From assembly GCA_029289095.1 (NCBI GenBank), contig JARFUG010000005.1, forward strand, positions 11,914-75,913: DNA of 64,000 bases, read 5' to 3'. The position numbers were made by a program, and so were the translations under genes. Within the stretch, counting starts at the first letter, position 1. Each line of letters begins with the position of its first letter. Of the stretch, positions 22,352-42,388 are shown in pieces. The notes beneath the pieces were generated by a model that saw only the letters and a list, made by a program, of their open reading frames with translations, made no database searches and was not told the origin of the DNA. Source of the DNA: Desulfuromonadales bacterium (GTDB lineage Bacteria > Desulfobacterota > Desulfuromonadia > Desulfuromonadales > JACZKF01).

Positions 22352-22365
22352 TATCGGAGTTCTTC

Positions 22366-23667: not shown

Positions 23668-23731
23668 ACGCAGATAAGCGCAGATGGACGAAGACCAGGT
23701 TTCCATCTGCGGAAATCTGTGCAATCTGCGG
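23659..23731. repeat. 10-nt periodic CGCAGAT array, three direct plus three inverted units
   Basis: CGCAGATGAA, CGCAGATAAG, CGCAGATGGA (23659-23688), then CCATCTGCGG, AAATCTGTGC, AATCTGCGG (23703-23731). The inner arms GCGCAGATGG/CCATCTGCG form a hairpin. The GT stop (23665-23667) lies in the first unit. Confidence 0.9.
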
Positions 23732-23745
23732 ATGAAAGATCTGGA

Positions 23746-25293
23746 ATGAAGATCAAGTCGGTCAACCGCCGCATCGCACTGAACGCCTCGACCAATTTCG
23801 TCCGGTTCGGGTCGCAGGTGGTCATCGTCTTCCTCATGACGCCCTTCATCATCGGAAGCGTGGGGGATGCGTCCTATGGGGTGTGGGTGGTGATCCTGTC
23901 GTTCGCCGGCTATGCGGCGATTCTCGAGTTCGGTGTTCACGAATCTCTGATCAAGCTCGTCTCCAAGTACGAGACGCTCGGCGACGCAGCAAAAATCAAC
24001 CAGGTCTTTTCCATCGCCTTTCTCTTCATGGCGTCTCTGGCGCTTCTCTCCTTCACTATACTGTTCTGGATCGTCCCCGGCGCCCTGCCGCGCCTTCTCG
24101 GAGAAGGAGCGGATCTGCAAACTGCCACGCTTCTGCTGAAAATCGTCGCCTTCGATGCGGTCCTGATGCTGATGAATTTCTCCTTCTCCGGCATGATCTA
24201 CGGTTTCCAGCTCTATCACATCAAGAACACCCTCGACATTTTCATCGGTCTGGTCAGCCCCCTGGTCGTCTACATCCTGATTCGCCTCGATTACGGGGTC
24301 CTCTCGCTGGCGTACGGCACGATTCTCTTCAATGCGCTCAACCTGCTCATCTTCTCCAGCCTGTGCAAGTACCACTTTCGCCCCCTGCGCCTTGTCTACG
24401 GCAGCGGCAGCTTCACCGCTGTGCGGGAAATCCTTGCCGTCAGCTCGCGCCTTTTCACCTCGGCCACTGCCCTCAGGCTCGCCCGCAATTCGCAGCCGCT
24501 GGTGATCGCCTGGTTTCTCCCCCCGGCCTGGAACGCCTTCTACGCCGTTCCGGCGCGTCTGGCCGATTACGGCAACGAACTGCTGTACGTCCTCTCGAGG
24601 GGGTTCATGCCGATCTTCAGCGAATACCACTCCCGCGGCGATCGCGCGGCGATTCGCGAGCTCTATTTTCGCTTCACGCGCTTCATCGTCGCCGGCTTCT
24701 TCCCCCTGATCCTCTCGCTGCTCGTTTTCGGGGAGAGCTTTCTGTCGATCTGGATGTCGGCGGAATACGCCGAAAAAGGGAAATGGGTTCTGCTGTTTCT
24801 GACCCTTTCGATCTTCGTGCAGAGCTGCCAGCCACTTTGGGCCAAACTTCTCATCGGTGTCGAGCGTCTGGGCGTGATTGTCTCCGTCAACGTCTCGGTC
24901 TCGATTCTCCAGATCGTCCTCGGGATCGTTCTGGTTGCGGCGTACGGGATCGACGGCATGGCGCTGAGCATTCTGTGCGCCATGTTCGTCAGTCAGTTCA
25001 TCTATTTCCGCTACGTCGCCCGTTATCTGGAGACGACTCCCTGGGATTACATTCGCGGCTGCCATGTCCGGGCGCTCCTCGCATCGGCGGTCTTCTTCGC
25101 GCTCATCTCTACACTCAGGGGAACGTTCCCTCCGCAGAGCTACTTCGCGATCCTCTGGCAGCTCGCTTTCGGTTTTGCCGTCTATATTCCCCTGGCCTGG
25201 TTCCTTGTGCTGAGCCGGAACGAGCGCCGCGTTCTCAACGAGAAGGTCGCCGGGCGTTTCGGAGCCGGAGCGGCCAAGGAGCTCGAGCCATGA
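23746..25293 (+). CDS. oligosaccharide-unit flippase (Wzx, MOP superfamily)
   Basis: Start at ATG 23746. About 12-14 TM helices. N-terminus NASTNFVRFGSQVVIVFLMTPFIIGSVGDASYGVW is typical of polysaccharide biosynthesis (Wzx) proteins. Confidence 0.8.
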   Translation: MKIKSVNRRIALNASTNFVRFGSQVVIVFLMTPFIIGSVGDASYGVWVVILSFAGYAAILEFGVHESLIKLVSKYETLGDAAKINQVFSIAFLFMASLALLSFTILFWIVPGALPRLLGEGADLQTATLLLKIVAFDAVLMLMNFSFSGMIYGFQLYHIKNTLDIFIGLVSPLVVYILIRLDYGVLSLAYGTILFNALNLLIFSSLCKYHFRPLRLVYGSGSFTAVREILAVSSRLFTSATALRLARNSQPLVIAWFLPPAWNAFYAVPARLADYGNELLYVLSRGFMPIFSEYHSRGDRAAIRELYFRFTRFIVAGFFPLILSLLVFGESFLSIWMSAEYAEKGKWVLLFLTLSIFVQSCQPLWAKLLIGVERLGVIVSVNVSVSILQIVLGIVLVAAYGIDGMALSILCAMFVSQFIYFRYVARYLETTPWDYIRGCHVRALLASAVFFALISTLRGTFPPQSYFAILWQLAFGFAVYIPLAWFLVLSRNERRVLNEKVAGRFGAGAAKELEP

Positions 25294-26930
25294 TGAGACC
25301 AACTTCCCTGATCGCCTTTGTTCTGCTCTTTCTCTGGACGGCGCCAGCCGCTGCGGGAGAGCGCCTAATAGACGGTCCGGCGATCCTCGACCAGGAAAAC
25401 GCCAGCTACCGGCTGACGGTCGATATCGAGGCGAACTCCACCCCCTTCGTCATCCGCGCTTCGGGGGTGACCCTCGATCTCGGCGGGCGCGCCATCACCG
25501 TGCGATGCCGCGAGGGGGAAGAGGGGGCGATCCACGCCGTCGCCGTCGAAGGGCATCATCTGAAACAGATCCGGATTCTGAACGGCTCCCTGAGCCAGCG
25601 CGGCCAGTGCCGCGAGAGCCATCCGGTCCATATGCCTTCCGGGGTGCACGGCGCCGAAATCGCCCACCTCGCCATCGACTACGAGTCGCCGGACGCCTCG
25701 GCCATTCGCATGCACTGGGGGGAGCATTCGCGCATCCATCACAACGTGATCGACGATCGCGGTCAGGTCGTTTCCAATCGTCACCAGGGGGTGGCGGCTA
25801 TCGATGCAGGGCGGGGGGAGGGGATGCGCATCCACGACAACACCATCCGTCGCACCCGGCATATCGGGATTCGGACGGCGGAAGGGGCCGAAATCCGCAA
25901 CAACGCGGTGCATATCGACAGCGTCGCCACGAACTCGACGGGGATCTTCGCCGCAGGAGGCGTCGTGGCGCACAACCGGGTGACGGGGGAGGGGGTTCAC
26001 CCCATCGGCATCTGGCCGGGAAACGATATCCGGGTCTTCGGGAACTACGTCCGGGTGGGAAACACCCGCTTCGGCGAAGAGTACGGCAACACCGGCGCCG
26101 CCTGCCTGCGCATGACCTGGGGAAACGACGCCGTGGAGGTGACCGACAACATCTTCATTCTCGATGCCGAAGGGGCTGCAGCGGAACCGGATTTGGAAAG
26201 CTGGGGGAGGGCGCTTTGGGTGGGGCTCCCCGAGCCGGGCCAGAGAGCGCTCTTCGCCCGCAACCTCATCGTCGCCAGCAGCCGCGAAGGGCGCGCCAAA
26301 GCGGCCGCTATCGCCGTGGTGTGCGACAACGCCTCTTCAGGGCTCGTCTTTCTGGAGAACACCGTCATCAGCAACTGGGGGGCGGTGCTGCTCGCCGACG
26401 ATTACGGGCACGCTGACGGCTACGCGCGTTTTGTCGAGAACACCTTCGTGCGCCAGGGGGATTCTCCGGAGTTTCGCACTGTGCGCAGCGATTATCCCGA
26501 ATACCCGAGTACGGGGATCTTCATCGACAACCTCTGCCTGGGGGGCGCTTCCTGCACGGAGGCCGACCTGGAGTGGGGGGGGGCGGGTCTGAAGGAGGTC
26601 GGCTTCGGCCGCCGAGTCGTCTTTGTGCTGACGGACGCTTCGGGACGCCCCCTTGCCGATGTCTCCGTGGAGATCGTCGACGCAGAGAGTCTCTCTCGTT
26701 TCGAGGGGCGAACCGATGAGAACGGGGAGATTCCGGCAGAACTCGTCGATTACTTTCTCACCAACCAGGTCGCGATGCTCATGGCATCCGGCGAGAGGGA
26801 ATTCCCGGTGCGCCGCCGCGCAACGTCCGCCCTCACGATGCGTCGGGGAGAAATGGAAAGCCGAAAATCCGTCCACACCGGAACGGAAGAGCTGCCGCGC
26901 ACGATCCGGTTAAAATTCGTCGTCGATTAG
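25290..26930 (+). CDS. secreted right-handed beta-helix (PbH1/CASH-like) protein, paralog 1
   Basis: ATGA overlap with wzx (25290-25293). Signal peptide MMRPTSLIAFVLLFLWTAPAAAG. Repeated xNxI/V beta-helix rungs (HHNVIDD, IHDNTI, IRNNAV, AHNRV, FGNYV, TDNIF). C-terminal CarboxypepD_reg-like beta-sandwich (VVFVLTDASGRPLADVSVEIVD...TDENGEI). Shares blocks with 28076 and 30316. Confidence 0.7.
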   Translation: MMRPTSLIAFVLLFLWTAPAAAGERLIDGPAILDQENASYRLTVDIEANSTPFVIRASGVTLDLGGRAITVRCREGEEGAIHAVAVEGHHLKQIRILNGSLSQRGQCRESHPVHMPSGVHGAEIAHLAIDYESPDASAIRMHWGEHSRIHHNVIDDRGQVVSNRHQGVAAIDAGRGEGMRIHDNTIRRTRHIGIRTAEGAEIRNNAVHIDSVATNSTGIFAAGGVVAHNRVTGEGVHPIGIWPGNDIRVFGNYVRVGNTRFGEEYGNTGAACLRMTWGNDAVEVTDNIFILDAEGAAAEPDLESWGRALWVGLPEPGQRALFARNLIVASSREGRAKAAAIAVVCDNASSGLVFLENTVISNWGAVLLADDYGHADGYARFVENTFVRQGDSPEFRTVRSDYPEYPSTGIFIDNLCLGGASCTEADLEWGGAGLKEVGFGRRVVFVLTDASGRPLADVSVEIVDAESLSRFEGRTDENGEIPAELVDYFLTNQVAMLMASGEREFPVRRRATSALTMRRGEMESRKSVHTGTEELPRTIRLKFVVD

Positions 26931-26992
26931 TGCAACCCGTACGGCGCAGGCGAACGCCACTGACGACATTGAGCACGAGATATCGAGACCAA

Positions 26993-27697
26993 ATGAAACT
27001 TTCCGAACTGAGAAGAAAGGTGCTGACGATAGAGAAGGTTGTTTTCTACTCTCTCGATTTGCGGCAGTGGCAGACGCCGTCTTTGCCCCGAATGCGGCTG
27101 CCGGTCAGATTTGCCTTCGGGAGAGAAGAAGACATCGAATGCATGGCGGCCGACGACAGACTCAATCTCGGAGGGCGCAGCGATTTCTATCTGCAGAAGC
27201 TGCAGATGGGACACAAGCTGCTGCTCGGAACACGGAACGAGGAGATCCTCTTTTATCTCTGGGTCGTTTCGGGGGAGAAGATCCTGATGAACAAAGTGTT
27301 GGCGCTCGAGCCGCAGCAGATCGCCATCGAGAGGGCCTTCGTCCGCAAGGACGTGCGCGGACACGGCCTCTTCGTCCACGGTCTCAATTACCTTCTCCCA
27401 CTGGAAAAGGAGGAGGGAGCGGCGAACTGCCTGACGGAGGTGAGCTGCAAGAACAGGCCGATGACCCACACCGTGCTGAAATACGGTTTCGAGCGCCTCG
27501 ACTCCTCCTACTACTGGATCTCCCATCCGCTGCGTCATCACGCCATCGTCCTCGGTCCGCTGCGAAAGCGCAGCCGCCCCAACACCATCATCTCGCCGAT
27601 GGCAGGCGCGCAGGGGAGGTATCTATGGAAGGCAGAAGCCAGAAGCCAGAAGCCAGGAGCCAGGAGCCAGGAGCCAGGAGTAAGGAATAAGGAATAA
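26993..27697 (+). CDS. small GNAT-like N-acetyltransferase (tentative)
   Basis: Start at ATG 26993. ERAFVRKDVRGHGLFVHGLNYL resembles GNAT motif A (R-x-x-G-x-G/A). The C-terminal ~20 aa are encoded by heptamer arrays, and the stop is the third TAA of TAAGGAA x3. Confidence 0.45.
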   Translation: MKLSELRRKVLTIEKVVFYSLDLRQWQTPSLPRMRLPVRFAFGREEDIECMAADDRLNLGGRSDFYLQKLQMGHKLLLGTRNEEILFYLWVVSGEKILMNKVLALEPQQIAIERAFVRKDVRGHGLFVHGLNYLLPLEKEEGAANCLTEVSCKNRPMTHTVLKYGFERLDSSYYWISHPLRHHAIVLGPLRKRSRPNTIISPMAGAQGRYLWKAEARSQKPGARSQEPGVRNKE

Positions 27698-27876
27698 GGA
27701 CCAGGAGCCAGGAGTCAGGAGCCAGGAGCCAGAGCCGGCTCGTTCTTTTCCGTTTAACTCGCCCTCCTCCCTCCTCCCTTCTTGGCCCTTCGTCCTCTGT
27801 CCTCTGTCCTCCGTCCTCCGTCCTCCGTCCTCCGTCCTCCGTCCTCTCCAACTCCCAACTCCCAGCTCCCAACTCC
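27632..27876. repeat. largest heptamer-repeat block: ~15 sense units then ~12 antisense-type units
   Basis: 27632-27735: GCAGAAG, CCAGAAG x2, CCAGGAG x4, TAAGGAA x3, CCAGGAG x2, TCAGGAG, CCAGGAG, CCAGAGC. 27793-27876: TCCTCTG x2, TCCTCCG x5, TCCTCTC, CAACTCC x2, CAGCTCC, CAACTCC. Confidence 0.95.
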
Positions 27877-27989
27877 CGCCATATCACCACAGCCTCCGAC
27901 ACAAATGGTCAACGCCTTCGCTCGAGGGTGTGAACTTTCGTTCTCCTGGCTTTTAAGATAAGTGACTGAAATTGCGTAGAAAACAAAGT

Positions 27990-28005
27990 TGGTACATGCA
28001 TTGCT
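27990..28005 (+). promoter_or_regulatory. sigma-54 (-24/-12) promoter candidate for beta-helix lipoprotein paralog 2
   Basis: TGGTAC-ATGCA-TTGCT against the consensus TGGCAC-N5-TTGCW, with exact GG-N10-GC spacing. Lies 71 nt upstream of ATG 28076. Confidence 0.6.
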
Positions 28006-28075
28006 CCTTTGAGCTCCCGGCCGACGCATAAGCCGTCGGAACCGGGCTTTTCAAATGAACAAGGAGATCACGAGA

Positions 28076-29983
28076 ATGAAGGTCAGATTTGCTGCCTTCC
28101 CTCTGCTTGCGGCTGCCCTCATGCTGATCCTGGTCGGGTGCGGCACAGACGGAGGTAAAGCGTCGTGGGACATTTCGGGAGAGGACTTCTTTGCTCCTGC
28201 CGAGAATAACGATTTCATCAGCGAGTTCCCTCAAATCGGGAACGAACCCTCCAACCCTCGGACCGAAACGCCATCTCCCGGCGAGCCTTCTCCCACCGTC
28301 GGGGCTCACGGCGCCATCGGCGCCGCCTCTGCCGGGGTCGCCTTCTGGGACGCAGAGATCCCGCACCGCAGCCGAACGGTGATGCTGAGCGCCCCTGCGG
28401 TTCTCGATCAGCCCGATACCGAATACATCCTGGCGCAGGACATCGTCGTCGCCGGAAGCGCATTCATTATCACGGCCGCGAACGTGACGCTGAACCTCAA
28501 CGGCCGTACCGTCACCTACGCGCAGAGCGCATCTTCCGGCCCAGTCTACGGCATCAACCTCATCGAACGGGGACTGTCCGATGTGGCGATCGTGAACGGC
28601 AAGATCCGCCAGGGCAATGGCGCCTCCGAGAGCGATGCGACGCAAAGAGGGTGGCACCCGGTCAACATCCTGCGCGATGTCCCCGGTCTGAAGATCGCAG
28701 GGCTCAAGGTCGAATACCGCACCCCTGAGACCTTCGCCATCAATGTCCCCTGGGGGAGGAACGGCGAAATCGCCCATAACGATCTACACGATACGGGCTC
28801 TTTCATCATCGACCGCCATCAACTTGTCGCTGTCGTCAAGGCAAACCGGGCGCCGGGAATGACGATCCGCCACAACCGCATCCTCCGCGCGCGCCAGGCC
28901 GGGATCGACGCCGGCCCCGGGGCTGTGGTGCACGATAACGAGATCGTGATCGACAGCCACAGCACCAATTCGTACGGCATCGTCCTGTACAACGTCGACG
29001 GCTTCACCGTTCACAACAACACCATCAAGGGGGCAGGGGAGCATCCCATCGGGATCGGGATGGTTTCGGGAACAAGAAATGGCGAGGTCTACAGCAATCG
29101 CGTTGAGGTGCAGAACACTCGGGGGAGCGCCGAGTACGGAGCTACGGGCTCGGCCGGGATGCGAATGACGTGGGGGACCGACAAGGTCGAGGTCCGCAAC
29201 AACCACATCACGGTGAAGGCCCAGGCGAATCTGGTCGGTCCGGGGCTCGACAGTTGGGGACGCGGGCTCTGGCTCGGGCTCCCCGATGCTGGTGCCGCCG
29301 TTCTCTTTCGCGACAACACCATCATCGCCGTGAACAAAGACGGGCGCGCCAAGGCCGCAGGGATCGCGGTGGTGTGCGGCAACAGGGCGCCCGGCCTCGT
29401 TTTCCGCAACAACCTGGTGACGAGCAACTGGGCCAACGTGCTGCTGACAGACGATTACGGAGACGCACAAGGCTTTCCCCGCTTCATCGGGAACACCTTC
29501 CGAAAGCAGGACGATCATTCCACCTATCGCACGGTTCGCAGCCAGTATGCGGGCCGCATATCAACCGGCAACTTCTTCAGCAACGTCTATGAGAACGGCG
29601 CCGCCGCCGACAGCATGGAGATGGAATTCCACGGCTCCGGACTCAAAGAAATCGGTTTCGGCTGGAGGGTGCGCCTGACGGTGCGCGATGCCGCGAACCA
29701 CCCCGTGAGCGGAGCGACGGTGCGGATCGCAGACAACAGCGGAGACGTGGTTTTCAGCGGGAGCACCGATGCCGATGGTCATGCGTTCACCGAACTGGTC
29801 GAGTTCCAGGCGACCAACCGCAGCAGCTACGTCGTCGCAGGCCAGCTCACCAAAGATGTCTTCGGCCTCTACGGCAACCGCATCCGCAAGAATCCCTACA
29901 CAGTCACCGTCGAAAAGAACGGCGTCAGGGTCTCGGAAGTGATCGAGATCAAGGCAGACAGAGAGGTGGAGATAGGACTTTAG
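28076..29983 (+). CDS. beta-helix (PbH1/CASH-like) lipoprotein, paralog 2
   Basis: ATG 28076 has an AAGGAGA RBS at 28061. Lipoprotein signal MKVRFAAFPLLAAALMLILVGC. Beta-helix rungs and a C-terminal beta-sandwich. Long identical blocks with paralog 3 (GEHPIGIGMVS, GSAEYGATGSAGMRMTWGTD, ANLVGPGLDSWGRGLW, DGRAKAAGIAVVCGN). Confidence 0.75.
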   Translation: MKVRFAAFPLLAAALMLILVGCGTDGGKASWDISGEDFFAPAENNDFISEFPQIGNEPSNPRTETPSPGEPSPTVGAHGAIGAASAGVAFWDAEIPHRSRTVMLSAPAVLDQPDTEYILAQDIVVAGSAFIITAANVTLNLNGRTVTYAQSASSGPVYGINLIERGLSDVAIVNGKIRQGNGASESDATQRGWHPVNILRDVPGLKIAGLKVEYRTPETFAINVPWGRNGEIAHNDLHDTGSFIIDRHQLVAVVKANRAPGMTIRHNRILRARQAGIDAGPGAVVHDNEIVIDSHSTNSYGIVLYNVDGFTVHNNTIKGAGEHPIGIGMVSGTRNGEVYSNRVEVQNTRGSAEYGATGSAGMRMTWGTDKVEVRNNHITVKAQANLVGPGLDSWGRGLWLGLPDAGAAVLFRDNTIIAVNKDGRAKAAGIAVVCGNRAPGLVFRNNLVTSNWANVLLTDDYGDAQGFPRFIGNTFRKQDDHSTYRTVRSQYAGRISTGNFFSNVYENGAAADSMEMEFHGSGLKEIGFGWRVRLTVRDAANHPVSGATVRIADNSGDVVFSGSTDADGHAFTELVEFQATNRSSYVVAGQLTKDVFGLYGNRIRKNPYTVTVEKNGVRVSEVIEIKADREVEIGL

Positions 29984-29987
29984 AATC

Positions 29988-30095
29988 GTGAGGAGTGAGG
30001 AGTCAGGAGTCAGGAGTCAATAGATTGAGTGCAATGCAATCGGCGGGACCCTTCGGGTTCCGCCTTTTTTTTATCCCAGCTCCCAACTCCCAACC
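29988..30095. repeat. heptamer arrays flanking a terminator: GTGAGGA/GTCAGGA x5 and CAGCTCC/CAACTCC x2.7
   Basis: Units at 29988-30022 (sense GGAGTGA/GGAGTCA family). The complement family is at 30077-30095. The two blocks bracket the hairpin at 30042-30072. Confidence 0.9.
30042..30072 (+). terminator. Rho-independent terminator after paralog 2
   Basis: GGCGGGACC (30042-30050) pairs with GGTTCCGCC (30056-30064), including one G-U pair. Loop CTTCG, followed by T8 (30065-30072). Confidence 0.8.
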
Positions 30096-30120
30096 TTCGG
30101 CTGAGGATGATTTTCACATG

Positions 30121-30140
30121 TTGTTGCATCTGCGCAACAA
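30121..30140. promoter_or_regulatory. inverted repeat TTGTTGC-N6-GCAACAA, candidate enhancer-binding-protein site
   Basis: Perfect 7-bp arms at 30121-30127 and 30134-30140, about 80-100 nt upstream of the sigma-54 -24 element at 30220. An IHF-consensus match AATCAACATCTTA (WATCAANNNNTTR) lies at 30199-30211 between them. Confidence 0.3.
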
Positions 30141-30219
30141 ACCGCCGCGCTGAGCCGCAGAGAACGAAAGTCCCAGGAAATCCTCAAAATGGTCTGAAAA
30201 TCAACATCTTACATCCTTT

Positions 30220-30235
30220 CGGCACGGCCATTGCT
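30220..30235 (+). promoter_or_regulatory. sigma-54 (-24/-12) promoter candidate for beta-helix lipoprotein paralog 3
   Basis: CGGCAC-GGCCA-TTGCT with exact GG-N10-GC spacing. Lies 81 nt upstream of TTG 30316. Confidence 0.6.
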
Positions 30236-30315
30236 GTATGGGCCTGCGTTGCACACGCGTGAGGAACCTGGGTTCCGATTGAATCCTCACCCTAAAAAGC
30301 CGATAGGAGATACCC

Positions 30316-32169
30316 TTGAGCAGACGTTTTCTTGTACTTTTTTCCCTCATTCCCTTCCTCCTTCTTGCCTGTGGCGGCGGCGAATCTGATGCTCAGGCTT
30401 TTGATCATGATCTCCCCTCCGCGAACGGCGGAGGCGGCGATTTTGTCTCAGATGAATTTCCCGGCGTCAGTCCGGGCTCTGTCGGCGCCCCTTCAGCGGG
30501 AATCGGCGCGGACGGCAAGGTCGGAGCCGATTCCTGGGATCGTCAGACACCCGCCCGCACCAACCGGGTGATGATCAGCGCACCGGGGGAGCTGACCCAG
30601 GCCGATACGGTCTATATCCTGGCTCAGGATATCTTCGCTCCCGGCACCGCCTTCACCGTCAAGGCCGCCAACGTCACCCTGGATCTCAACGGTCGCACCA
30701 TCACGTATGCCAACGGCGGCGCTTCGGAGCGGGCCTACGGGGTAAGCGTCGATCGCGGCCTGCGTGATGTGGCCATCGTCAACGGAAGCATCCGACAAGG
30801 GGGAGGAGCGCAGGAGAACAATCCCGACCAAGCGGGGTGGCATCCGGTTCATTTCGTCTCCGACACTCCGGGCTTCAAGGTTGCCGGCCTGAACATCGAG
30901 TACCGTACGCCCGAGACGTCGGCCATTCATGCCCAGTGGGGGAAGCAGGGTGAGATTCACCACAACGATCTCAACGATACCGGCTCCTTCATCATCAATC
31001 GTCACCAACTCGTCTCGGTCATCAAGAACAACCGCGGCTCCGGCACCCGGATTCACCACAATCGCATCGTCAGGGCGCGCCAGGGGGGGATCGACATCGG
31101 CAACGCTTCCGAGACAAGCCACAACGAGATCGTCGTCGAGAGCCGGAGCACCAACTCCTACGGCATCTCGTCTTACGGGATCGACGGTTTTACGATCAGC
31201 AACAATATGATCAAAGGGAGCGGCGAGCATCCCATCGGCATAGGCATGGTCTCCAAGTCGCGAAACGGCAAGGTCCACGGCAACCGCATCGAGGTTCAGA
31301 ATACCGAGGGGAGCGCAGAGTACGGCGCCACCGGCTCGGCCGGTATGCGCATGACGTGGGGGACCGACCAGGTCGAGGTCTGGAACAACCACGTCACCGT
31401 CAGGGCACAGGCCAATCTCGTCGGTCCCGGCCTCGACAGTTGGGGGCGCGGGCTGTGGGTCGGACTTCCCGATCCGCAGGCGAAGGTCCTTTTCCGCAAC
31501 AACACCATCATCGCAAAAAACAACGACGGTCGCGCCAAAGCGGCAGGGATCGCGGTGGTGTGCGGCAACGAGTCGCCGGGGCTCGTCTTTCGCGACAACC
31601 TGGTGGTGAGCAACTGGGGGCACGTCGTTCTGGCCGATGATTACGGCAAGGGGGACGGTTATCCCCAGTTCTTCGGAAACACCTTCCGCAAAGAAGACGA
31701 TCACGAAAATTACCGCACGGTAAAAAGCGATTACCGCGGCTACGTCGCCACCGGCGTCTTTATCGGCAACCGCTATGAAGGAGGATCCTCCCGCGATTCG
31801 ATCGAGGGAGAGTTCGAGTCCAGAGAGCTCAAGGATATCGCTTTCGGATGGGAATACGGCCTCACCGTGAAATCGGGCGGACGGACACTTCCCGGCGCTT
31901 CGGTGAAGATCTATGATAATACCGGCGCCGAGATCTTCAGCGGCATGACCGACGAATCCGGGCGCATCGACGCCGTTCTCATCGAGTACTGGGCGACCAA
32001 CAACAGCGACAATCCCGGACCGCCCGAGGCGCTCCGCCGGGATGTCTTCGGCGCCTACGGCAACCGCATCGACAAGAACCCCTACCGCGTCCGCATCAGT
32101 TCCGCTGGTGTGACGAAGGAGCAGCCGGTCACGGCGACCGGGAACATCAACGCCGAGGTCGAGCTGTAA
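30316..32169 (+). CDS. beta-helix (PbH1/CASH-like) lipoprotein, paralog 3
   Basis: TTG start with an AGGAGA RBS at 30305-30310. Lipoprotein signal ...FSLIPFLLLAC. Collinear with paralog 2 over nearly its full length. Confidence 0.75.
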   Translation: MSRRFLVLFSLIPFLLLACGGGESDAQAFDHDLPSANGGGGDFVSDEFPGVSPGSVGAPSAGIGADGKVGADSWDRQTPARTNRVMISAPGELTQADTVYILAQDIFAPGTAFTVKAANVTLDLNGRTITYANGGASERAYGVSVDRGLRDVAIVNGSIRQGGGAQENNPDQAGWHPVHFVSDTPGFKVAGLNIEYRTPETSAIHAQWGKQGEIHHNDLNDTGSFIINRHQLVSVIKNNRGSGTRIHHNRIVRARQGGIDIGNASETSHNEIVVESRSTNSYGISSYGIDGFTISNNMIKGSGEHPIGIGMVSKSRNGKVHGNRIEVQNTEGSAEYGATGSAGMRMTWGTDQVEVWNNHVTVRAQANLVGPGLDSWGRGLWVGLPDPQAKVLFRNNTIIAKNNDGRAKAAGIAVVCGNESPGLVFRDNLVVSNWGHVVLADDYGKGDGYPQFFGNTFRKEDDHENYRTVKSDYRGYVATGVFIGNRYEGGSSRDSIEGEFESRELKDIAFGWEYGLTVKSGGRTLPGASVKIYDNTGAEIFSGMTDESGRIDAVLIEYWATNNSDNPGPPEALRRDVFGAYGNRIDKNPYRVRISSAGVTKEQPVTATGNINAEVEL

Positions 32170-32194
32170 ACCGGAACGACATCGCTGCACAGAC

Positions 32195-32236
32195 GAAAAA
32201 AAGGTGGGATCCCTCGGGCTCCCACCTTTTTTTCGT
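32195..32236. terminator. Rho-independent, potentially bidirectional terminator after paralog 3
   Basis: An A7 run, then GGTGGGATCCC (32203-32213) pairing with GGGCTCCCACC (32216-32226) with one mismatch, then T7 (32227-32233). Confidence 0.75.
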
Positions 32237-32334
32237 CTGGGGCCGGGTGGGTGGGAGGCTTCATTAAATGTAGGAAAACTTTACAATGAAGCCTTCTCGC
32301 CTAATTTCTGTTGTATTTTCAGATAGATACGATC

Positions 32335-32350
32335 TGGCCCGGAGTTTGCT
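32335..32350 (+). promoter_or_regulatory. sigma-54 (-24/-12) promoter candidate for the PEP-CTERM cargo gene
   Basis: TGGCCC-GGAGT-TTGCT with exact spacing, 47 nt upstream of ATG 32397. A perfect 10-bp inverted repeat AGGCTTCATT (32256-32265) / AATGAAGCCT (32285-32294) lies 41-79 nt upstream. Confidence 0.6.
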
Positions 32351-32396
32351 ATTCAATGAGAACAAACCCCAACCACCCCTTTCCAAAGGAGGGAAC

Positions 32397-33023
32397 ATGA
32401 AAAAATGGATAAGTATTTTGTCGATCGGAATTCTCCTGTGCTTTTCTTCATCAGCATTGGCGCTCACGTATTATTTCGACGTCTCCAACGAATTCGGCAC
32501 ATGGCAGGGGACAGTGCCGCCGGGCTACGGCTCTGTTGAGATCGAAAAGGGAGCCGATGGCTTCATCTATTTCACCGTGACCGCGAACGACAATTTCTTC
32601 ACCCCCAGCGGTCCAGGGCTCACCTGGGACAAGTTCTACTACAATTTCAACGACCAGAAGACCCTCGACACCAGCCTGATCGTCGTCACGGCTCCCGGCA
32701 ACTGGAACGTCGACATCACGAACAGGAACGTCTCGATGTTCGGCCGCTTCGACTATGGCACGCATGGCAGCGCCATCGGGAGCGAGTTTCTCAATCCTCT
32801 TACCTTCTACATCGCCGATCCGAGCCTGGTGGAAACCGATTTCGCATTCGCCAATGCCGACGGCTACCTCTTTGCCGCGCACCTGAGAAGATTCGCTTCG
32901 ATCGACGGCAGGGACAGCACCTTCCTTGCCGTGCGCACCGAACCGATCCCCGAGCCGGCGACAATTCTCCTTCTCGGCTCCGGTCTTCTCGGCCTTTACG
33001 GCGTCCGCAAACGCCGCAGTTGA
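32397..33023 (+). CDS. PEP-CTERM sorting-domain protein (exosortase cargo)
   Basis: ATG 32397 with an AAAGGAGGG RBS. Sec signal MKKWISILSIGILLCFSSSALA. C-terminus EPIPEPATILLLGSGLLGLYGVRKRRS has the PEP motif, a TM helix and a basic cluster, the canonical PEP-CTERM tripartite signal. Confidence 0.9.
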   Translation: MKKWISILSIGILLCFSSSALALTYYFDVSNEFGTWQGTVPPGYGSVEIEKGADGFIYFTVTANDNFFTPSGPGLTWDKFYYNFNDQKTLDTSLIVVTAPGNWNVDITNRNVSMFGRFDYGTHGSAIGSEFLNPLTFYIADPSLVETDFAFANADGYLFAAHLRRFASIDGRDSTFLAVRTEPIPEPATILLLGSGLLGLYGVRKRRS

Positions 33024-33030
33024 AAAGACG

Positions 33031-33060
33031 AGCGCAGCAGGGGATTTCCCCTGCTGCGCT
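33031..33060 (+). terminator. 13-bp perfect hairpin after the PEP-CTERM gene (terminator or RNA stabiliser)
   Basis: AGCGCAGCAGGGG (33031-33043), loop ATTT, CCCCTGCTGCGCT (33048-33060). No clear T-run follows. Confidence 0.45.
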
Positions 33061-33216
33061 TCACGTCCGACACCGCGCGCCGCCCACGCGGTAATATGAA
33101 CCTTGGATCACCGGCTTTGAACCAAAGGCCTTCCCGCCACGGGTGTACCTTCCAAATAGCTGTAAACCTGTTGTTTTTTCCAAAACAAAATCGTCGAATA
33201 TTTTTTCCGGAAGCGG

Positions 33217-33244
33217 TTTACATCGGGACCTCTCTTACTATAAT
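33217..33244 (+). promoter_or_regulatory. candidate sigma-70-type promoter
   Basis: TTTACA (33217-33222), 16-nt spacer, TATAAT (33239-33244), in an AT-rich spacer. Motif match only. Confidence 0.3.
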
Positions 33245-33310
33245 TAGCCTGAAATAATTACATCTATTTTAATTAATTGATTTGTCAGAAACCTTTACAC
33301 AGGCACTCTT

Positions 33311-33326
33311 ATCGCCTTTCGACTCA
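33311..33326 (+). promoter_or_regulatory. weaker sigma-54 (-24/-12) promoter candidate for the TPR lipoprotein gene
   Basis: AGGCAC-TCTTA-TCGCC. The GG-N10-GC spacing is exact and -24 GGCAC is intact, but the -12 reads TCGC instead of TTGC. Lies 81 nt upstream of ATG 33407. Confidence 0.4.
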
Positions 33327-33406
33327 ACATCCCGTTACGAGTGAACGATGGCGGTCCTCCTTCGAAAGCGGGAATCCGGCCGACCATGCAAGGGAGAAGA
33401 ACCGCA

Positions 33407-36055
33407 ATGAAACTGCTCAAAGTATTGACCTTTGTGATGCTCGTGATCTGTCTGCTTCCCGGGTGCCGCACCCAGACCCGCGAGGCGTTGCTCGAGAAGG
33501 GGGTCGCGCTCGCTCAGGCCGGCGATTTCGATGGTGCGATCGTGTGCTTTCGAAGCGCCCTGGACAGGGATGCCAACTTCTCCGAAGCCCGGTACGAGCT
33601 GGCTCACGCCTATCTGCGGACAGGCCGGTTCGATCGGGCGGAAAACGAACTCGAGAAAGTTCTTCGCCAGGACGCCTCTTTTCCCAGGCTCCCCCTGCTG
33701 CTCGCCGAGGTCTACCTTCACAGCTCCCGCGTCGGGCAGGCGCGCGAAATAATCGAGGAATGGCTCATCGCTCACGGTCACGATGCCGATGCCTATGATC
33801 TTCTCGGGCGCGTGCATATCGCAGCGAACGATTTCATGGCGGCGGAGGAGGCGTTAAGAAAAGCGGTGCGTTTCCAGCCCGAGCACATTTCGGCCCGTAT
33901 CAATCTGGCCGCCCTGCACCTTACCCAGGGGCGCGTCGAAGCGGGGCGGACGATCCTGGAGGAGATCCTCACGGAGGCTCCCGACAACATTCCCGCGCGA
34001 AACATGCTGGCAGGCCTGGAGATCGAAGCCGGAAGGGCGGAGTCGGCTCTGGAGCAGTTCGAGGCGCTGGCGCGAGTCGATCAAAGCAGTCCCGACGCCC
34101 TTTACATGAGCGCTCTGCTGCATCTGCAGATGGGAAACATCGAGGAGGTGAAAAAAATCTCGGCAGTTCTCGATGAGCGTTTTCGCGACCATTCCCTTCC
34201 CCCCCTGCTGAGGGGGCTGATCCTCTATCGCGAGGGGAAATTTACCGAGGCGAGCATCGCTTTTCAGGCGGCCAACCGTATCCGTTCCGATTTGACGGCA
34301 TTCTATTTTCTCGGTCTGAGCTATTACCACCTCGGAAATTTCGAACTCGCCCTCAGCGAAATGCAGCGCATTCTCGATTATCGCCCCTCTTCGGTGCAGC
34401 CCCGCCTCATGAGCGCCGTCATCCTGCTGCAGCAGCAAAGGAGCGGCGACGCCATCCGGGAGGCTGAAATCGCCCTGCGCCACGATCCCCAAAGCGGCGT
34501 CGCGCACAACATTCTCGGCAGCGCCTATCTGGCCCAGGGAAAATACGATCTGGGGATGACGCACCTCGCCCGCGCCACGGCGCTCGATCCAAATCTCGCC
34601 GATGCACATCTTAAAAAAGGGATCTTCAACCTGACGAGAGGGAATTCGGAGTCGGGTGAGAGGGAAATCGTGCAGGCGCTTGCGATCGCACCCGAGGTCC
34701 TCGATACGCGGCTGATCCTGGCGAATCATCACCTGCGCCGGCAGAACTACCCCGCGGCCCTCGGCATACTGGAAGAAGGGCTCCGCGGCCGCCCGCAGGA
34801 TGCCGTCCTGTACAACGTCATGGCCGGCGCCTATTTCTCGATGAACCGGCCCCAAAAAGCACTCGAAGCTCTTCATGCCGCGAGGCGGGCCGACCCCGGA
34901 TACCTGACCCCGGTGTTCAACCTGGCTGCTTACTACGCCGCCGCGGGGGAAGCCGAAACGGCGGCCGCGGAATACCGGAAGATTCTGCAGAAAGACCCGG
35001 CGAACGTGCGCGCTCTTGTCGCCGCCGGAAGGCTTGCAGAGGCGATGGGGAAGGGCAACCAAGCGCTCGGCCATTTCCAGAGAGCCAGAGAGACCGGCGC
35101 CCCCGAGGGCTTCCTCGCCCTGGCGCAATACCAGCTCAGAAGCGGAAACGAAACAGAGGCGGCCTCTCTTCTGGACGAGGGTCTGCGCAGACATCGAAAC
35201 GCTCCGGCGCTTCTCGATGCCAAAGGACGGCTTCTGCTGCGGCAGGGGCGCGCGGAAGAGGCGATCCCCGTCTTCCAGGCCCTGGAGGCGGCAAGTCCCG
35301 GACGCGGTTATCCGGTGTTGGTGCAGATCTATCTGCAGGGCGAGCAGAGGGAAAAGGCCGAAGAGACAGCCCGCAGGGCGACTCGTGAAAACCCCGACCG
35401 CGCGTACGGGTATGGTCTGCAGGCCGCCATCCACGAGGCTGTGGGAGAACATCGGCAGGCGCTGCGGATCCTCGAAGAGGCGCGACGAAGGGTCAGAGAG
35501 CCTCAGCTCGAGATGCAGATCGGACAGCTTCACGAAAGGGCGGGCAATCATCAGAGGGCAAAGGAGAGCTACGTCCGTGTTCTGGAGAGCGCTCCCCGGT
35601 TTCATCCGGCTCTTTTCGCTCTCGCATCCCTCCAGGACCGGGCCGGCAACAAGGCAGAGGCGATGCGCCTCTACCGCCAGGTCCTGGAAATCGAGAGCGA
35701 CTTTACCCCTGCCCTCAACAACCTCGCCTATCTCCAGGCCGAAAATTTCGGCGATCCGGAAGAGGGGCTGAGACTGGCTTTTCAGGCCTATCGAAACGAA
35801 CCGGAACAGCCCGTCGTCATGGATACCCTCGGATATCTTCTGGTGCGCAACGGAAGGGCGACGGAGGCCGTCCCCCTGCTCGAGCAGGCTGCCGCCCTGC
35901 TCCCTGACACGCCCACAGTCCTGTACCACCTCGGGCTCGCCTACAAGGAGAGCGGCCAGAAGGAGAAGGCGCGAGGGGCGCTGCACCGCGCCCTCGAAAT
36001 GGGGGAGTTTCCCGAGTCCCGGCAATCGAGGAAGATTCTGGCGCAGTTGGAATAG
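33407..36055 (+). CDS. TPR-repeat lipoprotein, PEP-CTERM system type (PrsT-like)
   Basis: ATG 33407 with an AGGGAGAAG RBS. Lipoprotein signal MKLLKVLTFVMLVICLLPGC. About 880 aa of consecutive TPR units (A-x3-Y/L-x-G-x3-A periodicity throughout). Confidence 0.85.
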   Translation: MKLLKVLTFVMLVICLLPGCRTQTREALLEKGVALAQAGDFDGAIVCFRSALDRDANFSEARYELAHAYLRTGRFDRAENELEKVLRQDASFPRLPLLLAEVYLHSSRVGQAREIIEEWLIAHGHDADAYDLLGRVHIAANDFMAAEEALRKAVRFQPEHISARINLAALHLTQGRVEAGRTILEEILTEAPDNIPARNMLAGLEIEAGRAESALEQFEALARVDQSSPDALYMSALLHLQMGNIEEVKKISAVLDERFRDHSLPPLLRGLILYREGKFTEASIAFQAANRIRSDLTAFYFLGLSYYHLGNFELALSEMQRILDYRPSSVQPRLMSAVILLQQQRSGDAIREAEIALRHDPQSGVAHNILGSAYLAQGKYDLGMTHLARATALDPNLADAHLKKGIFNLTRGNSESGEREIVQALAIAPEVLDTRLILANHHLRRQNYPAALGILEEGLRGRPQDAVLYNVMAGAYFSMNRPQKALEALHAARRADPGYLTPVFNLAAYYAAAGEAETAAAEYRKILQKDPANVRALVAAGRLAEAMGKGNQALGHFQRARETGAPEGFLALAQYQLRSGNETEAASLLDEGLRRHRNAPALLDAKGRLLLRQGRAEEAIPVFQALEAASPGRGYPVLVQIYLQGEQREKAEETARRATRENPDRAYGYGLQAAIHEAVGEHRQALRILEEARRRVREPQLEMQIGQLHERAGNHQRAKESYVRVLESAPRFHPALFALASLQDRAGNKAEAMRLYRQVLEIESDFTPALNNLAYLQAENFGDPEEGLRLAFQAYRNEPEQPVVMDTLGYLLVRNGRATEAVPLLEQAAALLPDTPTVLYHLGLAYKESGQKEKARGALHRALEMGEFPESRQSRKILAQLE

Positions 36056-36060
36056 GAGGG

Positions 36061-36166
36061 CAGAATCCAGAATCCAGAAACCAGGAGCCAGAAAAGAACC
36101 CTGCACCCTGAATTTTGAACCTATGGGCAAGTCTTTCTCCTGGCTCCTGGATTCTGGCTCCTGGCT
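36061..36166. repeat. heptamer inverted pair (CAGAATC/CAGGAGC family and complement)
   Basis: CAGAATC x2, CAGAAAC, CAGGAGC, CAGAAAA at 36061-36095. The complement block TTCTCCTGGCTCCTGGATTCTGGCTCCTGGCT is at 36135-36166. CCAGGAGCCAG (36081-36091) pairs with CTGGCTCCTGG (36140-36150). Confidence 0.9.
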
Positions 36167-36186
36167 ACTGTTTTAGGAGATATTCA

Positions 36187-37215
36187 ATGCACATTCTGCG
36201 TGTCTACAACCGCGACCCGCTCTGGGACGCTTATGTCGATTCTCATCCCGAGGCGACCAATTATCACCGGCTTGGCTGGAAACGCGTGGTCGAAAGGAGT
36301 TTCGGGCACCAGGGGATCTACCTCGCGGCCCGCGACAATGAAGGGAAGATGCAGGGAATACTCCCCCTCGTCTATCTCAGGAGTCCTCTCTTCGGGAACG
36401 TCATCGTATCGGTTCCCTTTTTCAATTACGGCGGGCTTCTATGCAGTTGCACAGAGGCGGAGCACGCTCTGCTGTCCGAGGCCGAAAAGATCAAAGAGAA
36501 CCTGCGCGTCGGTCACCTCGAGCTTCGGCACATGGGTCGAAGCTCGCCGGGGCTCGTCACAAAGAACCACAAAGTGACGATGATCCTCGATCTGCTTCCG
36601 GACGAGGAGAGCCAGTGGCAGGGGTTCAGCGCAAAGGTTCGCAATCAGGTGAGAAAGGCGCAGAAGGCGGGGCTCGAGACAAAGCTCGGCGGCCTCAGTC
36701 TTCTCGACGGCTTCTACGACGTCTTCTGCAGGAACATGCGCGATCTCGGCACACCAGTGTACGCAAAGGCATTTTTCCGCAACATCCTGCGGGTCTTTCC
36801 CGAGCACACCCGGATTCTGTCGGTTTATCTCAACGGGAAGGTCATCGCTTCGGCTCTCCTCACCTGGTACCGCGACAGTCTCGAAGTCCCATGGGCTTCG
36901 TCGAACCGCGATTACCGCGATCTGTGTCCGAACAATCTGCTGTACTGGGAAGCGATCCGCTTCGCCGTCGGCATGGGGGTGAAGAGCTTTGATTTCGGCC
37001 GCTCCACGCCGGACCACGGGACGTTCCGGTTCAAGAAACAGTGGGGCGCCAGGCCGGTGCAGCTCTACTGGCAATACCTTCTCGGAAGTGAAAAAGAAGT
37101 CCCCGATCTGAGCCCGGCCAACCCCAAGTTCCGCCTGGCGATCAAGGTGTGGCAGAACCTCCCGGTAGGGGTGACAAAGCTTCTGGGACCGTCGATCGTG
37201 CGGAGTATTCCTTGA
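36187..37215 (+). CDS. FemAB-related protein, PEP-CTERM system-associated type
   Basis: ATG 36187 with a TAGGAGA RBS. MHILRVYNRDPLWDAYVDSHPEATNYHRLGWKRVVERSFGH..., FFNYGGLL, and FDFGRSTPDHGTFRFKKQWGA FemAB-fold C-terminus. Confidence 0.85.
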   Translation: MHILRVYNRDPLWDAYVDSHPEATNYHRLGWKRVVERSFGHQGIYLAARDNEGKMQGILPLVYLRSPLFGNVIVSVPFFNYGGLLCSCTEAEHALLSEAEKIKENLRVGHLELRHMGRSSPGLVTKNHKVTMILDLLPDEESQWQGFSAKVRNQVRKAQKAGLETKLGGLSLLDGFYDVFCRNMRDLGTPVYAKAFFRNILRVFPEHTRILSVYLNGKVIASALLTWYRDSLEVPWASSNRDYRDLCPNNLLYWEAIRFAVGMGVKSFDFGRSTPDHGTFRFKKQWGARPVQLYWQYLLGSEKEVPDLSPANPKFRLAIKVWQNLPVGVTKLLGPSIVRSIP

Positions 37216-37221
37216 GAGGCA

Positions 37222-37319
37222 GGAGTTGGGAGTTGGGAGTGAGGAGGCAGAAGGCGGAAGACAGAGGACAGAAGACAGAAGACAAGCCAGGAGCTATGAG
37301 CCAGGAACTATGAGCAATG
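37222..37319. repeat. heptamer array (GGAGTTG, GGAGTGA, GAAGACA, GAGGACA families) merging into a 14-mer AGCCAGGARCTATG duplication at the start codon
   Basis: Fourteen consecutive 7-nt units from 37222. AGCCAGGAGCTATG (37285-37298) and AGCCAGGAACTATG (37299-37312). The second ATG (37310) is the aminotransferase-like gene start. Confidence 0.9.
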
Positions 37320-38545
37320 AGCACAAAAGACGCTTCCGCATAGGACGCACTCTCCCGCCTGCGGCGGCTCCGATTGAGCTTCGCGACATCGTGTGCGGCC
37401 TTCGAGGGTGGTTTCGGGGGGAGAGGGCCGTGCGGGAGATGGAAGAGAGTTTCCGCTCGTTTTTCGGCGTGCGGCACTGCTTTGCCGTTTCCTCGGGCAC
37501 GGCGGCGCTCACCCTCATCCTCGCCGCGCTCAAGGAGAAGCGTCCGCGACGGACCGAGGTCCTCATTCCGGCCTACACTTGTTATTCGGTCCCCTCGGCC
37601 ATCGTGCGGGCCGGATTGAAGGTGGCCCTGTGCGACATCGATCCGAAGACTCTCGATTTCGACTACGGCGAGCTAAAGAGAAAACTCGAGAACCCGCGTC
37701 TGCTGGCCGTCGTGCCGACGCACCTGTTTGGCCTGCCGGCCGATGTGCCCCGACTTCGGGAGATGTTGCGCGACCGCGAAACGACCATCATCGAGGATGC
37801 GGCGCAGGCTATGGGGGGGCAGTTTGGAGGGAGAAAGCTCGGCACCCTGGGAGACGTCGGCTTCTTCAGCCTTGGTCGAGGAAAAGCGCTTTCCACCGTC
37901 GAAGGGGGGATCATTCTCACCAACTGTGACGAGATTGCCGCGAAAATCGCAAGAGAGCAGCGCCGCCTCTACGAGTATGGCGCTCTGGAGATGGGCTCTC
38001 TTGTGCTGTATGCCCTCGTGCTGACGGTTTTCCTGCGCCCCTCCCTCTTCTGGCTGCCGAGTTCCCTGCCTTTTCTGAACCTGGGGAAGACCGTCTTCGA
38101 TCCGACGTTCAGGATGCGAAGGATGAGCGGTTTTCAGGCAGGCCTGGCTCTGCACTGGCGGGAAAAGCTTGAAGCTCTGCAGGCTGCGCGCAGGGGGAGC
38201 GTCCGGCAGTGGTTCGGAGCCCTTATGCCGGCTCAGGCGGCACTCCTGAACGACCCGCCTCCTCTGCTTCGGCTGCCGGGGAGGGCGAAAACGGCGCACG
38301 GTGCATCGAGGCTGCTGTCGGGGGGGGCGAAAAAGGGGCTCGGAGTGTCGGCGGCCTATCCCGACGCCGTCAGCGCCATTCCAGAACTCGCCGGAGACTT
38401 CGCCGGTGAAGATTTTCCGGCAGCCAGGGACCTGGCTCGGCGGATCGTGACCCTGCCGGTCCATACCTACGTCAACAGTGAAGACCGCAGAAAAATTCTC
38501 GGTCTCTTGTCTCAAGTGGAGATGCAATGGCCGCTGTCAGCCTGA
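37310..38545 (+). CDS. DegT/DnrJ/EryC1/StrS-family PLP-dependent enzyme (sugar aminotransferase-like)
   Basis: FAVSSGTAALTLILAAL, VLIPAYTCYSV, IIEDAAQAMGG, FFSLGRGKALS (candidate PLP Lys), and C-terminal VTLPVHTYV. Confidence 0.75.
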   Translation: MSNEHKRRFRIGRTLPPAAAPIELRDIVCGLRGWFRGERAVREMEESFRSFFGVRHCFAVSSGTAALTLILAALKEKRPRRTEVLIPAYTCYSVPSAIVRAGLKVALCDIDPKTLDFDYGELKRKLENPRLLAVVPTHLFGLPADVPRLREMLRDRETTIIEDAAQAMGGQFGGRKLGTLGDVGFFSLGRGKALSTVEGGIILTNCDEIAAKIAREQRRLYEYGALEMGSLVLYALVLTVFLRPSLFWLPSSLPFLNLGKTVFDPTFRMRRMSGFQAGLALHWREKLEALQAARRGSVRQWFGALMPAQAALLNDPPPLLRLPGRAKTAHGASRLLSGGAKKGLGVSAAYPDAVSAIPELAGDFAGEDFPAARDLARRIVTLPVHTYVNSEDRRKILGLLSQVEMQWPLSA

Positions 38546-42361: not shown

Positions 42362-42388
42362 TTGACTCGTTGTGAATCGAGGTCGACG

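Follow-up and report, generated by a model that had tools for sequence, protein, structure and literature searches.

Predicted sigma-54 promoters of two beta-helix lipoprotein genes and a PEP-CTERM gene in an XrtA exopolysaccharide locus of a Desulfuromonadales-like bacterium

According to the text of Haft 2006 (BMC Biol 4:29, PMC1569441), PEP-CTERM genes mostly form operons of one gene each, preceded by long non-coding regions in which a 17-nucleotide (nt) motif 1 ending in TTTACA is separated by a spacer of 62.8 +/- 10.6 nt (range 32-92) from a 17-nt sigma-54 motif 2, which ends on average 71 nt (23-221) before the start codon, and the pattern is phylogenetically tied to PrsK, PrsR and PrsT. 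In Aquincola tertiaricarbonis RN12, transcription of pepA depends on rpoN1 and begins at a mapped start downstream of a -24/-12 promoter (TGGCAC/CTGCTT), and a stem-loop terminator precedes the next gene, prsT, which is rpoN1-independent (PMC9850573). For PrsR of Desulfovibrio vulgaris Hildenborough (DVUA0057), DNA-affinity-purified-chip (DAP-chip) enrichment of all five predicted PEP-CTERM targets and of other genes is described in the text of PMC3333781, and the text of PMC2725144 gives the RpoN consensus of Geobacter sulfurreducens as TTGGCACGGTTTTTGCT. Here we describe an XrtA/PEP-CTERM exopolysaccharide (EPS) locus from an uncultured Desulfuromonadales-like metagenome-assembled genome (MAG), carried on a 64-kb stretch of contig JARFUG010000005.1 (the whole stretch analysed, hereafter the window), in which two beta-helix lipoprotein genes and one PEP-CTERM cargo gene are each preceded by a predicted sigma-54 promoter (P1, P2 and P3, respectively; Table 1).

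A sequence-only reading of the window had proposed four sigma-54 promoters in a block of separately transcribed genes for exported proteins. Its sites 1-3, here P1-P3, have exactly the sequences and coordinates it gave, and the block, with a predicted sigma-54 promoter and a terminator for each gene, holds for three genes. On both strands of the window, P1-P3 are the only matches to TGGCACNNNNNTTGCW (TGGCAC-N5-TTGCW) with at most one mismatch. Scoring with a sigma-54 position weight matrix (PWM), built on the consensus of Barrios 1999 as quoted in PMC2725144 with approximate frequencies, had been suggested as a check, and it ranks P1-P3 as the top three among ~128,000 window positions; the next score (12.7) falls inside a gene on the wrong strand. 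Each of the three lies within a non-coding gap and on the coding strand, in a window of which 5.7% is non-coding, and none of the remaining non-coding stretches scores above 5.6. When each gap was shuffled separately, the observed scores of P1, P2 and P3 were matched in 3/2000, 3/2000 and 1/2000 shuffles (frequencies 0.0005-0.0015). In all three, GG and GC are exactly 10 nt apart in a YTGGCACG-N4-TTGCW context with one mismatch each, and the motif ends 70, 80 and 46 nt before the start codon, so that the promoter-to-start range of 47-81 nt given earlier stands for sites 1-3 and fails for site 4 (90 nt). No sigma-70-like promoter was found upstream of the three genes in a scan of 22000-38000.

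Table 1. Features of the sigma-54 promoter block and its flanks, in window coordinates (aa, amino acids; bit-score cut-offs in brackets).
Feature	Coordinates	Strand	Details
P1, predicted sigma-54 -24/-12 promoter, lipoprotein 2	27990-28005	+	TGGTAC-ATGCA-TTGCT; PWM 15.0
P2, predicted sigma-54 -24/-12 promoter, lipoprotein 3	30220-30235	+	CGGCAC-GGCCA-TTGCT; PWM 14.4
P3, predicted sigma-54 -24/-12 promoter, PEP-CTERM gene	32335-32350	+	TGGCCC-GGAGT-TTGCT; PWM 15.8
Site 4, probably not a promoter	33301-33316	+	AGGCAC-TCTTA-TCGCC; PWM 7.9; three mismatches
Beta-helix lipoprotein 2 gene	28076-29983	+	635 aa; lipobox LVGC; Pfam Beta_helix 51.2 bits (25.9)
Beta-helix lipoprotein 3 gene	30316-32169	+	617 aa; TTG start; lipobox LLAC; 57% identical to lipoprotein 2
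PEP-CTERM cargo gene	32397-33023	+	208 aa; signal peptide; C-terminal PEP motif, transmembrane helix, RKRRS
prsT, XrtA/PEP-CTERM tetratricopeptide-repeat lipoprotein	33407-36055	+	882 aa; TIGR02917 543.5 bits (312.2)
Intrinsic terminator after lipoprotein 2	30042-30072	+	10-bp GC stem then U8; -20 kcal/mol; z = -5.0
Bidirectional intrinsic terminator after lipoprotein 3	32190-32239		A7 and U7 flanks; -30.6 kcal/mol
Strong hairpin after PEP-CTERM gene	33031-33060	+	no U tract; -33.2 kcal/mol; z = -7.4
GAACGAAAGT element upstream of P1	27934-27943	-	part of GAAC-N4-GTTC dyad; ~53 nt upstream of P1 GG; candidate activator or architectural site
GAACGAAAGT element upstream of P2	30162-30171	+	also before site-2 orthologues, L003 (8285) and L020 (8547)
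Candidate enhancer, 18-bp dyad TGTTGC-N6-GCAACA	30122-30139		box variant (N12 not N11); 80 nt upstream of P2
Integration host factor (IHF) consensus match	30199-30211	+	AATCAACATCTTA; abuts P2 -24 element
PEP-CTERM box, Haft 2006 motif 1, predicted PrsR site	32269-32285	+	TGTAGGAAAACTTTACA; 17 nt ending TTTACA
Distal PEP-CTERM-box-like 17-mer, inverted	32165-32181	-	TGTCGTTCCGGTTTACA; over lipoprotein 3 stop codon; conserved in L005 (1427-1443)
Box-like 17-mer in prsT leader	33283-33299	+	TGTCAGAAACCTTTACA; partly conserved in L005 (CGTCACGAAAGTTGACA)
Sigma-70-like promoter upstream of prsT	33217-33244	+	TTTACA-16-TATAAT; 11/12 consensus positions

Comparison with related loci (numbered L002 to L044) revealed that the promoters are conserved. 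P1 has orthologues at L003 6155, L020 8407 and L042 7528, which read TGGTAT-N5-TTGCT, all with TGGTAT at -24. P2 corresponds to TGGCAC-GGGGG-TTGCT at L003 8414 and to GGGCAC-GGGCG-TTGCT at L020 ~8605, and P3 to TGGTCC-GGGTT-TTGCT at L005 1604. The closest MAG retains all three (P1 as TTGGTATATCGATTGCTG, P2 as GGGCAC-GGGCG-TTGCT, P3 as TGGTCC-GGGTT-TTGCT), and in the gap alignments, that of P2 included, the -24/-12 element is the block of highest conservation. In L003 (64% identity), two lipoprotein genes follow XrtA-EpsI-PrsK-PrsR, with a sigma-54 match ahead of each (16.6, TTGGTATGCACATTGCTA; 16.9, TTGGCACGGGGGTTGCTC); in L042 the gene order is the same, and ATGGTATGGATATTGCTG (17.2) stands ahead of a lipoprotein gene. 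PrsK and PrsR score 527.9 and 644.5 bits, above cut-off, in this order of XrtA-EpsI-PrsK-PrsR, sigma-54 site and lipoprotein. Additionally, sigma-54 matches scoring 16.8-17.1 lie just ahead of the more distant Nitrospirota homologues (L006, L012 and L015), and operonic, flippase-coupled beta-helix copies have no sigma-54 site. The predicted sigma-54 dependence of the beta-helix lipoprotein genes is thus well supported, and because these genes appear to use sigma-54 promoters, they would be switched independently of the surrounding biosynthetic operons. In the closest related MAG (L020, 8407-8620), the P1-type promoter is followed by ~60 nt, a T-run and then directly the P2 upstream region, so the lipoprotein-2 gene is apparently missing there. 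This gap could be a real deletion, a short-transcript promoter or an assembly collapse of paralogues; the contig ends inside the next gene.

The cargo gene is identified by TIGR02595 (25.6 bits, cut-off 16) and PF07589 (30.5 bits, cut-off 20.7). The products of the genes behind P1 and P2 are lipoproteins without a PEP-CTERM domain, and P3 alone has the kind of downstream gene on which Haft 2006 built its pattern. A predicted PrsR site lies 48 nt upstream of P3, and both this spacer and the distance from P3 to the ATG fall within the layout of Haft 2006, the match to motif 1 being judged by the 17-nt length and the 3' TTTACA given in the text of that paper (PMC1569441). The orthologous box in L005 (TGTCAGGCATCTTTACA) has a spacer of identical 48-nt length and diverged sequence. 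In L019 and L044, too, sigma-54 sites beside prsR have the same TGT-N11-ACA dyad at a distance of 51-59 nt upstream. In L019 (12940-13045), a sigma-54 site scoring 19.4 lies downstream of a PrsR-like gene, with two TTTACA/CTTACA boxes upstream of it, and precedes a GAF-domain gene, another box target outside the PEP-CTERM genes. The sigma-54 promoter beside prsR at L044 7615 has an IHF-like site ahead of it.

The sequence-only reading had linked the block to the PrsK/PrsR pair and had placed both genes outside the window. The latter is correct: family scans of ~50 open reading frames (ORFs) in the 64 kb found neither PrsK nor PrsR nor any other enhancer-binding protein, and a six-frame search found no GAFTGA or ESELFGH motif. 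The best 120 PrsR matches could not be assigned to the source MAG, PrsR being ~65% identical across orders. Within the PrsK/PrsR/PrsT set of Haft, PrsT is encoded in the window, and the relatives L003, L004 and L042 each carry genes for PrsK and PrsR. The regulatory link itself holds up, more strongly for the PEP-CTERM gene, with its box upstream of P3, than for P1 and P2, where the canonical box is absent. We propose that the locus would contain three single-gene transcription units, each with an enhancer-dependent sigma-54 promoter and its own terminator hairpin. Ahead of P3, PrsR would be expected to bind one or two 17-nt PEP-CTERM boxes (TGT-N11-ACA with a TTTACA end); once phosphorylated, it would contact the closed RNA polymerase-sigma-54 complex through a loop and use ATP to open it, and the cargo protein would be made only on a signal from the PrsK sensor kinase. 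The lipoprotein genes would probably be activated by PrsR from variant sites or, failing that, by a second enhancer-binding protein. For all three promoters we infer the identity of the activator from sequence context.

What lies upstream of P1 and P2 differs from the canonical layout. No Haft motif 1 (TGT-N11-ACA) was found within 160 nt of P1 or P2. The exact 10-mer GAACGAAAGT has just two occurrences in the window, one ahead of P1 and one ahead of P2, each ~53 nt upstream of the promoter GG and in opposite orientations; it is kept in L020 and L003, and across four promoters from two genomes its position relative to the -26 T is fixed at -56 to -59. The dyad upstream of P2 is kept in L020 at the equal 80-nt spacing, and TGT-N10-12-ACA has only 12 occurrences in the window. 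Exact matches to the IHF consensus WATCAANNNNTTR are found at two places in the window, 30199-30211 (+) and 33270-33282 (-), both in the block. When the nine lipoprotein promoters were searched for a shared motif by k-mers, nothing joined the Desulfuromonadales and Nitrospirota sets, and only the clade-specific GAACGAAAGT came out.

P1 and P2 might therefore be true sigma-54 promoters served by an enhancer-binding protein other than PrsR, with the PEP-CTERM gene alone in the PrsR regulon. This would fit the absence of the canonical 17-nt box at P1 and at the lipoprotein promoters of L003, L020, L042, L006, L012 and L015, the fixed GAACGAAAGT element that P1 and P2 have in common, and the length of the P2 dyad (18 bp, not 17 bp). 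Several observations speak for PrsR instead. In L003 and L042, the lipoprotein gene and its sigma-54 site lie immediately downstream of prsR; TGTAGGRAA repeats upstream of the sigma-54 sites of the Nitrospirota homologues equal the left half of the PEP-CTERM box of the window; the CCGACA half-site ahead of P1 is conserved between the window and L020; and PrsR-type sites at some non-PEP-CTERM genes are described in the texts of Haft 2006 (PMC1569441) and of the D. vulgaris DAP-chip study (PMC3333781). A separate activator is possible, and we consider it the less likely of the two choices. Since P1 and P2 have no recognised box, PrsR control of the lipoprotein genes is argued from neighbourhood and not from a binding site, and we regard PrsR dependence of these genes as plausible.

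The fourth proposed site, ahead of prsT, had been placed at 33311, 10 nt off its real position of 33301, and it does not hold up as a sigma-54 promoter. Apart from its three mismatches, its low score was reached in 207/2000 gap shuffles; the aligned position in L005 has no GG, where sites 1-3 have conserved counterparts in relatives; and the box-like 17-mer (33283-33299) sits right against its -24 element, a geometry unsuited to an enhancer. The IHF match at 33270-33282 (-) abuts the same 17-mer. In 22000-38000 the only sigma-70-like match is TTTACA-16-TATAAT, a near-consensus promoter which is also the best-conserved block upstream of prsT in L005. Because of the low score, the missing GG in L005, the abutting 17-mer, the conserved sigma-70-like block and the rpoN1-independence of Aquincola prsT (PMC9850573), we rejected site 4; prsT is probably read from the conserved sigma-70-type promoter and probably not sigma-54 dependent. 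The reading that all four sites are functional sigma-54 promoters could appeal to the GG-N10-GC spacing that site 4 retains, and to a TTTACA-ending sequence at 33206-33222, 77 nt upstream of site 4, with the IHF match between them in an enhancer-IHF-promoter-like layout. Against the evidence just given, we judge it improbable. An inverted repeat (84% complementary, CGGTTTACA..GACCTC) pairs 32155-32173, at the distal box, with 33214-33232, around the prsT -35 element. The TTTACA of this -35 element might double as a PrsR half-site, allowing autoregulation.

Taken together, three sigma-54 single-gene units, a PrsR-box module at the PEP-CTERM gene and prsT on a sigma-70 promoter form the explanation that we consider likely. 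Several points weigh against it. The activator genes prsK and prsR were neither found in the window nor located among the sequence of the source genome; there is no TGT-N10-12-ACA dyad within 160 nt of P1, and P2 has the N12 variant only; each promoter is off consensus at one -24 position (TGGTAC, CGGCAC, TGGCCC); the PWM frequencies are approximations of the Barrios 1999 compilation, of which the consensus string alone is documented; P1-P3 are known from the sequence of an uncultured MAG alone; and the number of consensus matches across the window has no significance by itself (shuffle mean 1.33, at least three matches in 16 of 100 shuffles). The last two points would also fit chance matches in AT-richer intergenic DNA, in which case the genes would be read by read-through or from unrecognised sigma-70 promoters. 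However, while the count is unremarkable, the placement of the three sites is unusual: all have the expected strand and the expected distance to a start codon and lie downstream of strong terminators, with per-gap shuffle frequencies of at most 0.0015 at each, and conservation within the intergenic DNA of orthologous loci from several genomes is highest at the sigma-54 motif. Chance occurrence is disfavoured, and we regard it as extremely unlikely; we infer that P1-P3 are used by sigma-54.

As the sequence-only reading had also stated, a hairpin or terminator closes each of the three genes (Table 1), the third without a U tract. In the predicted 5' leader of lipoprotein 2 (28006-28056), CUUUUC comes after a stable hairpin (-21.6 kcal/mol, z = -3.2), and L003 has a hairpin at the equivalent place; such a structure could stabilise the mRNA or attenuate transcription. 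Rfam scanning of 26900-33500 at a permissive E-value gave sub-threshold chance matches only, with no riboswitch or leader family. Tandem heptamer arrays lie beside the terminator regions, at 27633-27877, 29991-30019 and 30074-30094. They comprise (CAGGAGC)x15, (TCCTCCG)x12, (CCAACTC)x4, (AGGAGTC)x4 and (TCCCAAC)x3, purine-rich upstream and pyrimidine-rich downstream, and are not present in the orthologous region of L020. The first array codes for the C-terminal tail of the gene at 26993-27697; an ORF called at 27067-27690 was discarded as a gene, being in the wrong frame, and 26993-27697 is the conserved frame. When the three promoter gaps were compared as possible copies of one repeat, no extended similarity was detected beyond the heptamer arrays and terminators.

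The gene identities given earlier were confirmed by family scans and by the protein termini, and the lipoprotein 2 gene call is the same in L002. An AlphaFold model of lipoprotein 3 (predicted local distance difference test score, pLDDT, 89.6) shows a right-handed parallel beta-helix and a C-terminal beta-sandwich. Its Foldseek matches, which hold at the fold level only (template modelling score, TM, 0.3-0.4), are tailspike endoglycosidases, GH87 glucanases, alginate epimerases and lyases, the Vibrio cholerae matrix lyase RbmB and NosD. With TM scores of 0.3-0.4, no specific enzyme activity is claimed; on this modelled fold, lipoproteins 2 and 3 are probably glycan-cleaving or glycan-modifying enzymes, which may cut or modify the exopolysaccharide. 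A PDB sequence search with the lipoprotein family profile matched the C-terminal immunoglobulin-like domain only. The family is rare: 33 clusters were found, from Desulfuromonadales, Nitrospirota and some others, and it has no curated family model. A third beta-helix paralogue in the window (25290-26930, 546 aa) has a signal peptide without a lipobox, and its ATG overlaps the stop codon of a Wzx-like flippase gene. The same coupled arrangement, flippase, beta-helix and XrtA-EpsI-PrsK-PrsR, is also seen in L004/L008 and L042.

These proteins may, as a tentative suggestion that we hold to be rather less probable than not, form an undescribed accessory family of XrtA/PEP-CTERM systems, consisting of matrix-remodelling glycanases, lyases or epimerases that are expressed in two modes. 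One copy may be translationally coupled to the flippase/XrtA operon, and one or two stand-alone copies may be driven by sigma-54, with GAAC-N4-GTYC at ~-57 and TGTTGC-N6-GCAACA at -80 as their upstream elements and with either PrsR at a non-canonical site or a second enhancer-binding protein as the switch. If so, the glycan enzymes would be switched on with, or apart from, the PEP-CTERM cargo.

NCBIfam and Pfam scans revealed that the whole window is a single XrtA/PEP-CTERM exopolysaccharide locus, nearly all of it on the + strand. NCBIfam scores above cut-off (in brackets) were obtained for XrtA (223.1 bits, 208), EpsI (98.8, 42.8), FemAB (403.3, 260), EpsB_2 (499.5, 393), the exporter (215.9, 180), the chain-length determinant (389.9, 279), the PEP-CTERM ATPase (389.7, 324.5) and the deacetylase (390.6, 276), and likewise for the outer-membrane protein and PrsT. 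The EPS genes comprise the EpsB_2 priming transferase, the exporter, the chain-length determinant, the outer-membrane protein, many glycosyltransferases and the Wzx-like flippase; also present are the three beta-helix proteins, the one PEP-CTERM protein, an aminotransferase, a radical-SAM protein and further sugar-modifying genes. MAG GCA_030604755.1 and a Logan assembly encode proteins identical to those of the window; the nearest other genome is a Desulfuromonadales MAG, in which lipoprotein 3 is 84% identical. The GC content falls to 0.43 at 43001-44000, compared with ~0.59 for the window. This stretch lies over the ORFs at 42362-43600 and 43549-44286, the latter without any family match, and may be a horizontally acquired insert inside the EPS cluster.

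Among the described systems, the G. sulfurreducens RpoN regulon belongs to the same order-level lineage, and TTGGCACGGTTTTTGCT fits sites 1-3 closely; EPS or PEP-CTERM targets are not discussed in the text on that regulon, and G. sulfurreducens has rpoN as an essential gene (PMC2725144). D. vulgaris PrsR is a deltaproteobacterial orthologue which, in the text of PMC3333781, binds upstream of PEP-CTERM genes with predicted sigma-54 promoters and of other genes. It differs in being plasmid-borne and in having no validated binding motif, and the beta-helix lipoprotein family is not among the targets described there. In Aquincola, as in the window, a PEP-CTERM gene lies directly upstream of prsT with a hairpin between them. 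However, Aquincola is a betaproteobacterium with experimental evidence, while the Desulfuromonadales-like MAG is known from sequence only, and no beta-helix lipoprotein genes are reported in Aquincola (PMC9850573). The module of Haft 2006 is matched most fully: the PEP-CTERM gene of the window is a single-gene operon with >200 nt of non-coding sequence upstream, the TTTACA motif is repeated once further upstream, the P3 spacer (48 nt) is in the published 32-92 range, the GG-N10-GC motif ends 46 nt before the start, and prsT and XrtA/EpsI are in the same locus. Two differences are that prsK and prsR are not in the 64 kb of the window, and that two neighbouring non-PEP-CTERM lipoprotein genes have equally good predicted sigma-54 promoters without the canonical box.

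The architecture of PEP-CTERM box and sigma-54 promoter was already published in 2006 and is experimentally supported elsewhere, as the texts of these papers describe (PMC1569441, PMC9850573, PMC3333781). The window adds a clean, conserved example of the PrsR-box/sigma-54 module from an uncultured Desulfuromonadales-type bacterium. Its new element is modest, namely a predicted, conserved sigma-54 control of a rare beta-helix lipoprotein family without the canonical box, which would extend the sigma-54-controlled genes of XrtA loci to predicted glycan-active lipoproteins and would bear on the assembly and remodelling of biofilm or floc matrix. This locus leaves unchanged the known picture of tight sigma-54 and PrsR control over PEP-CTERM genes and separate expression of prsT.

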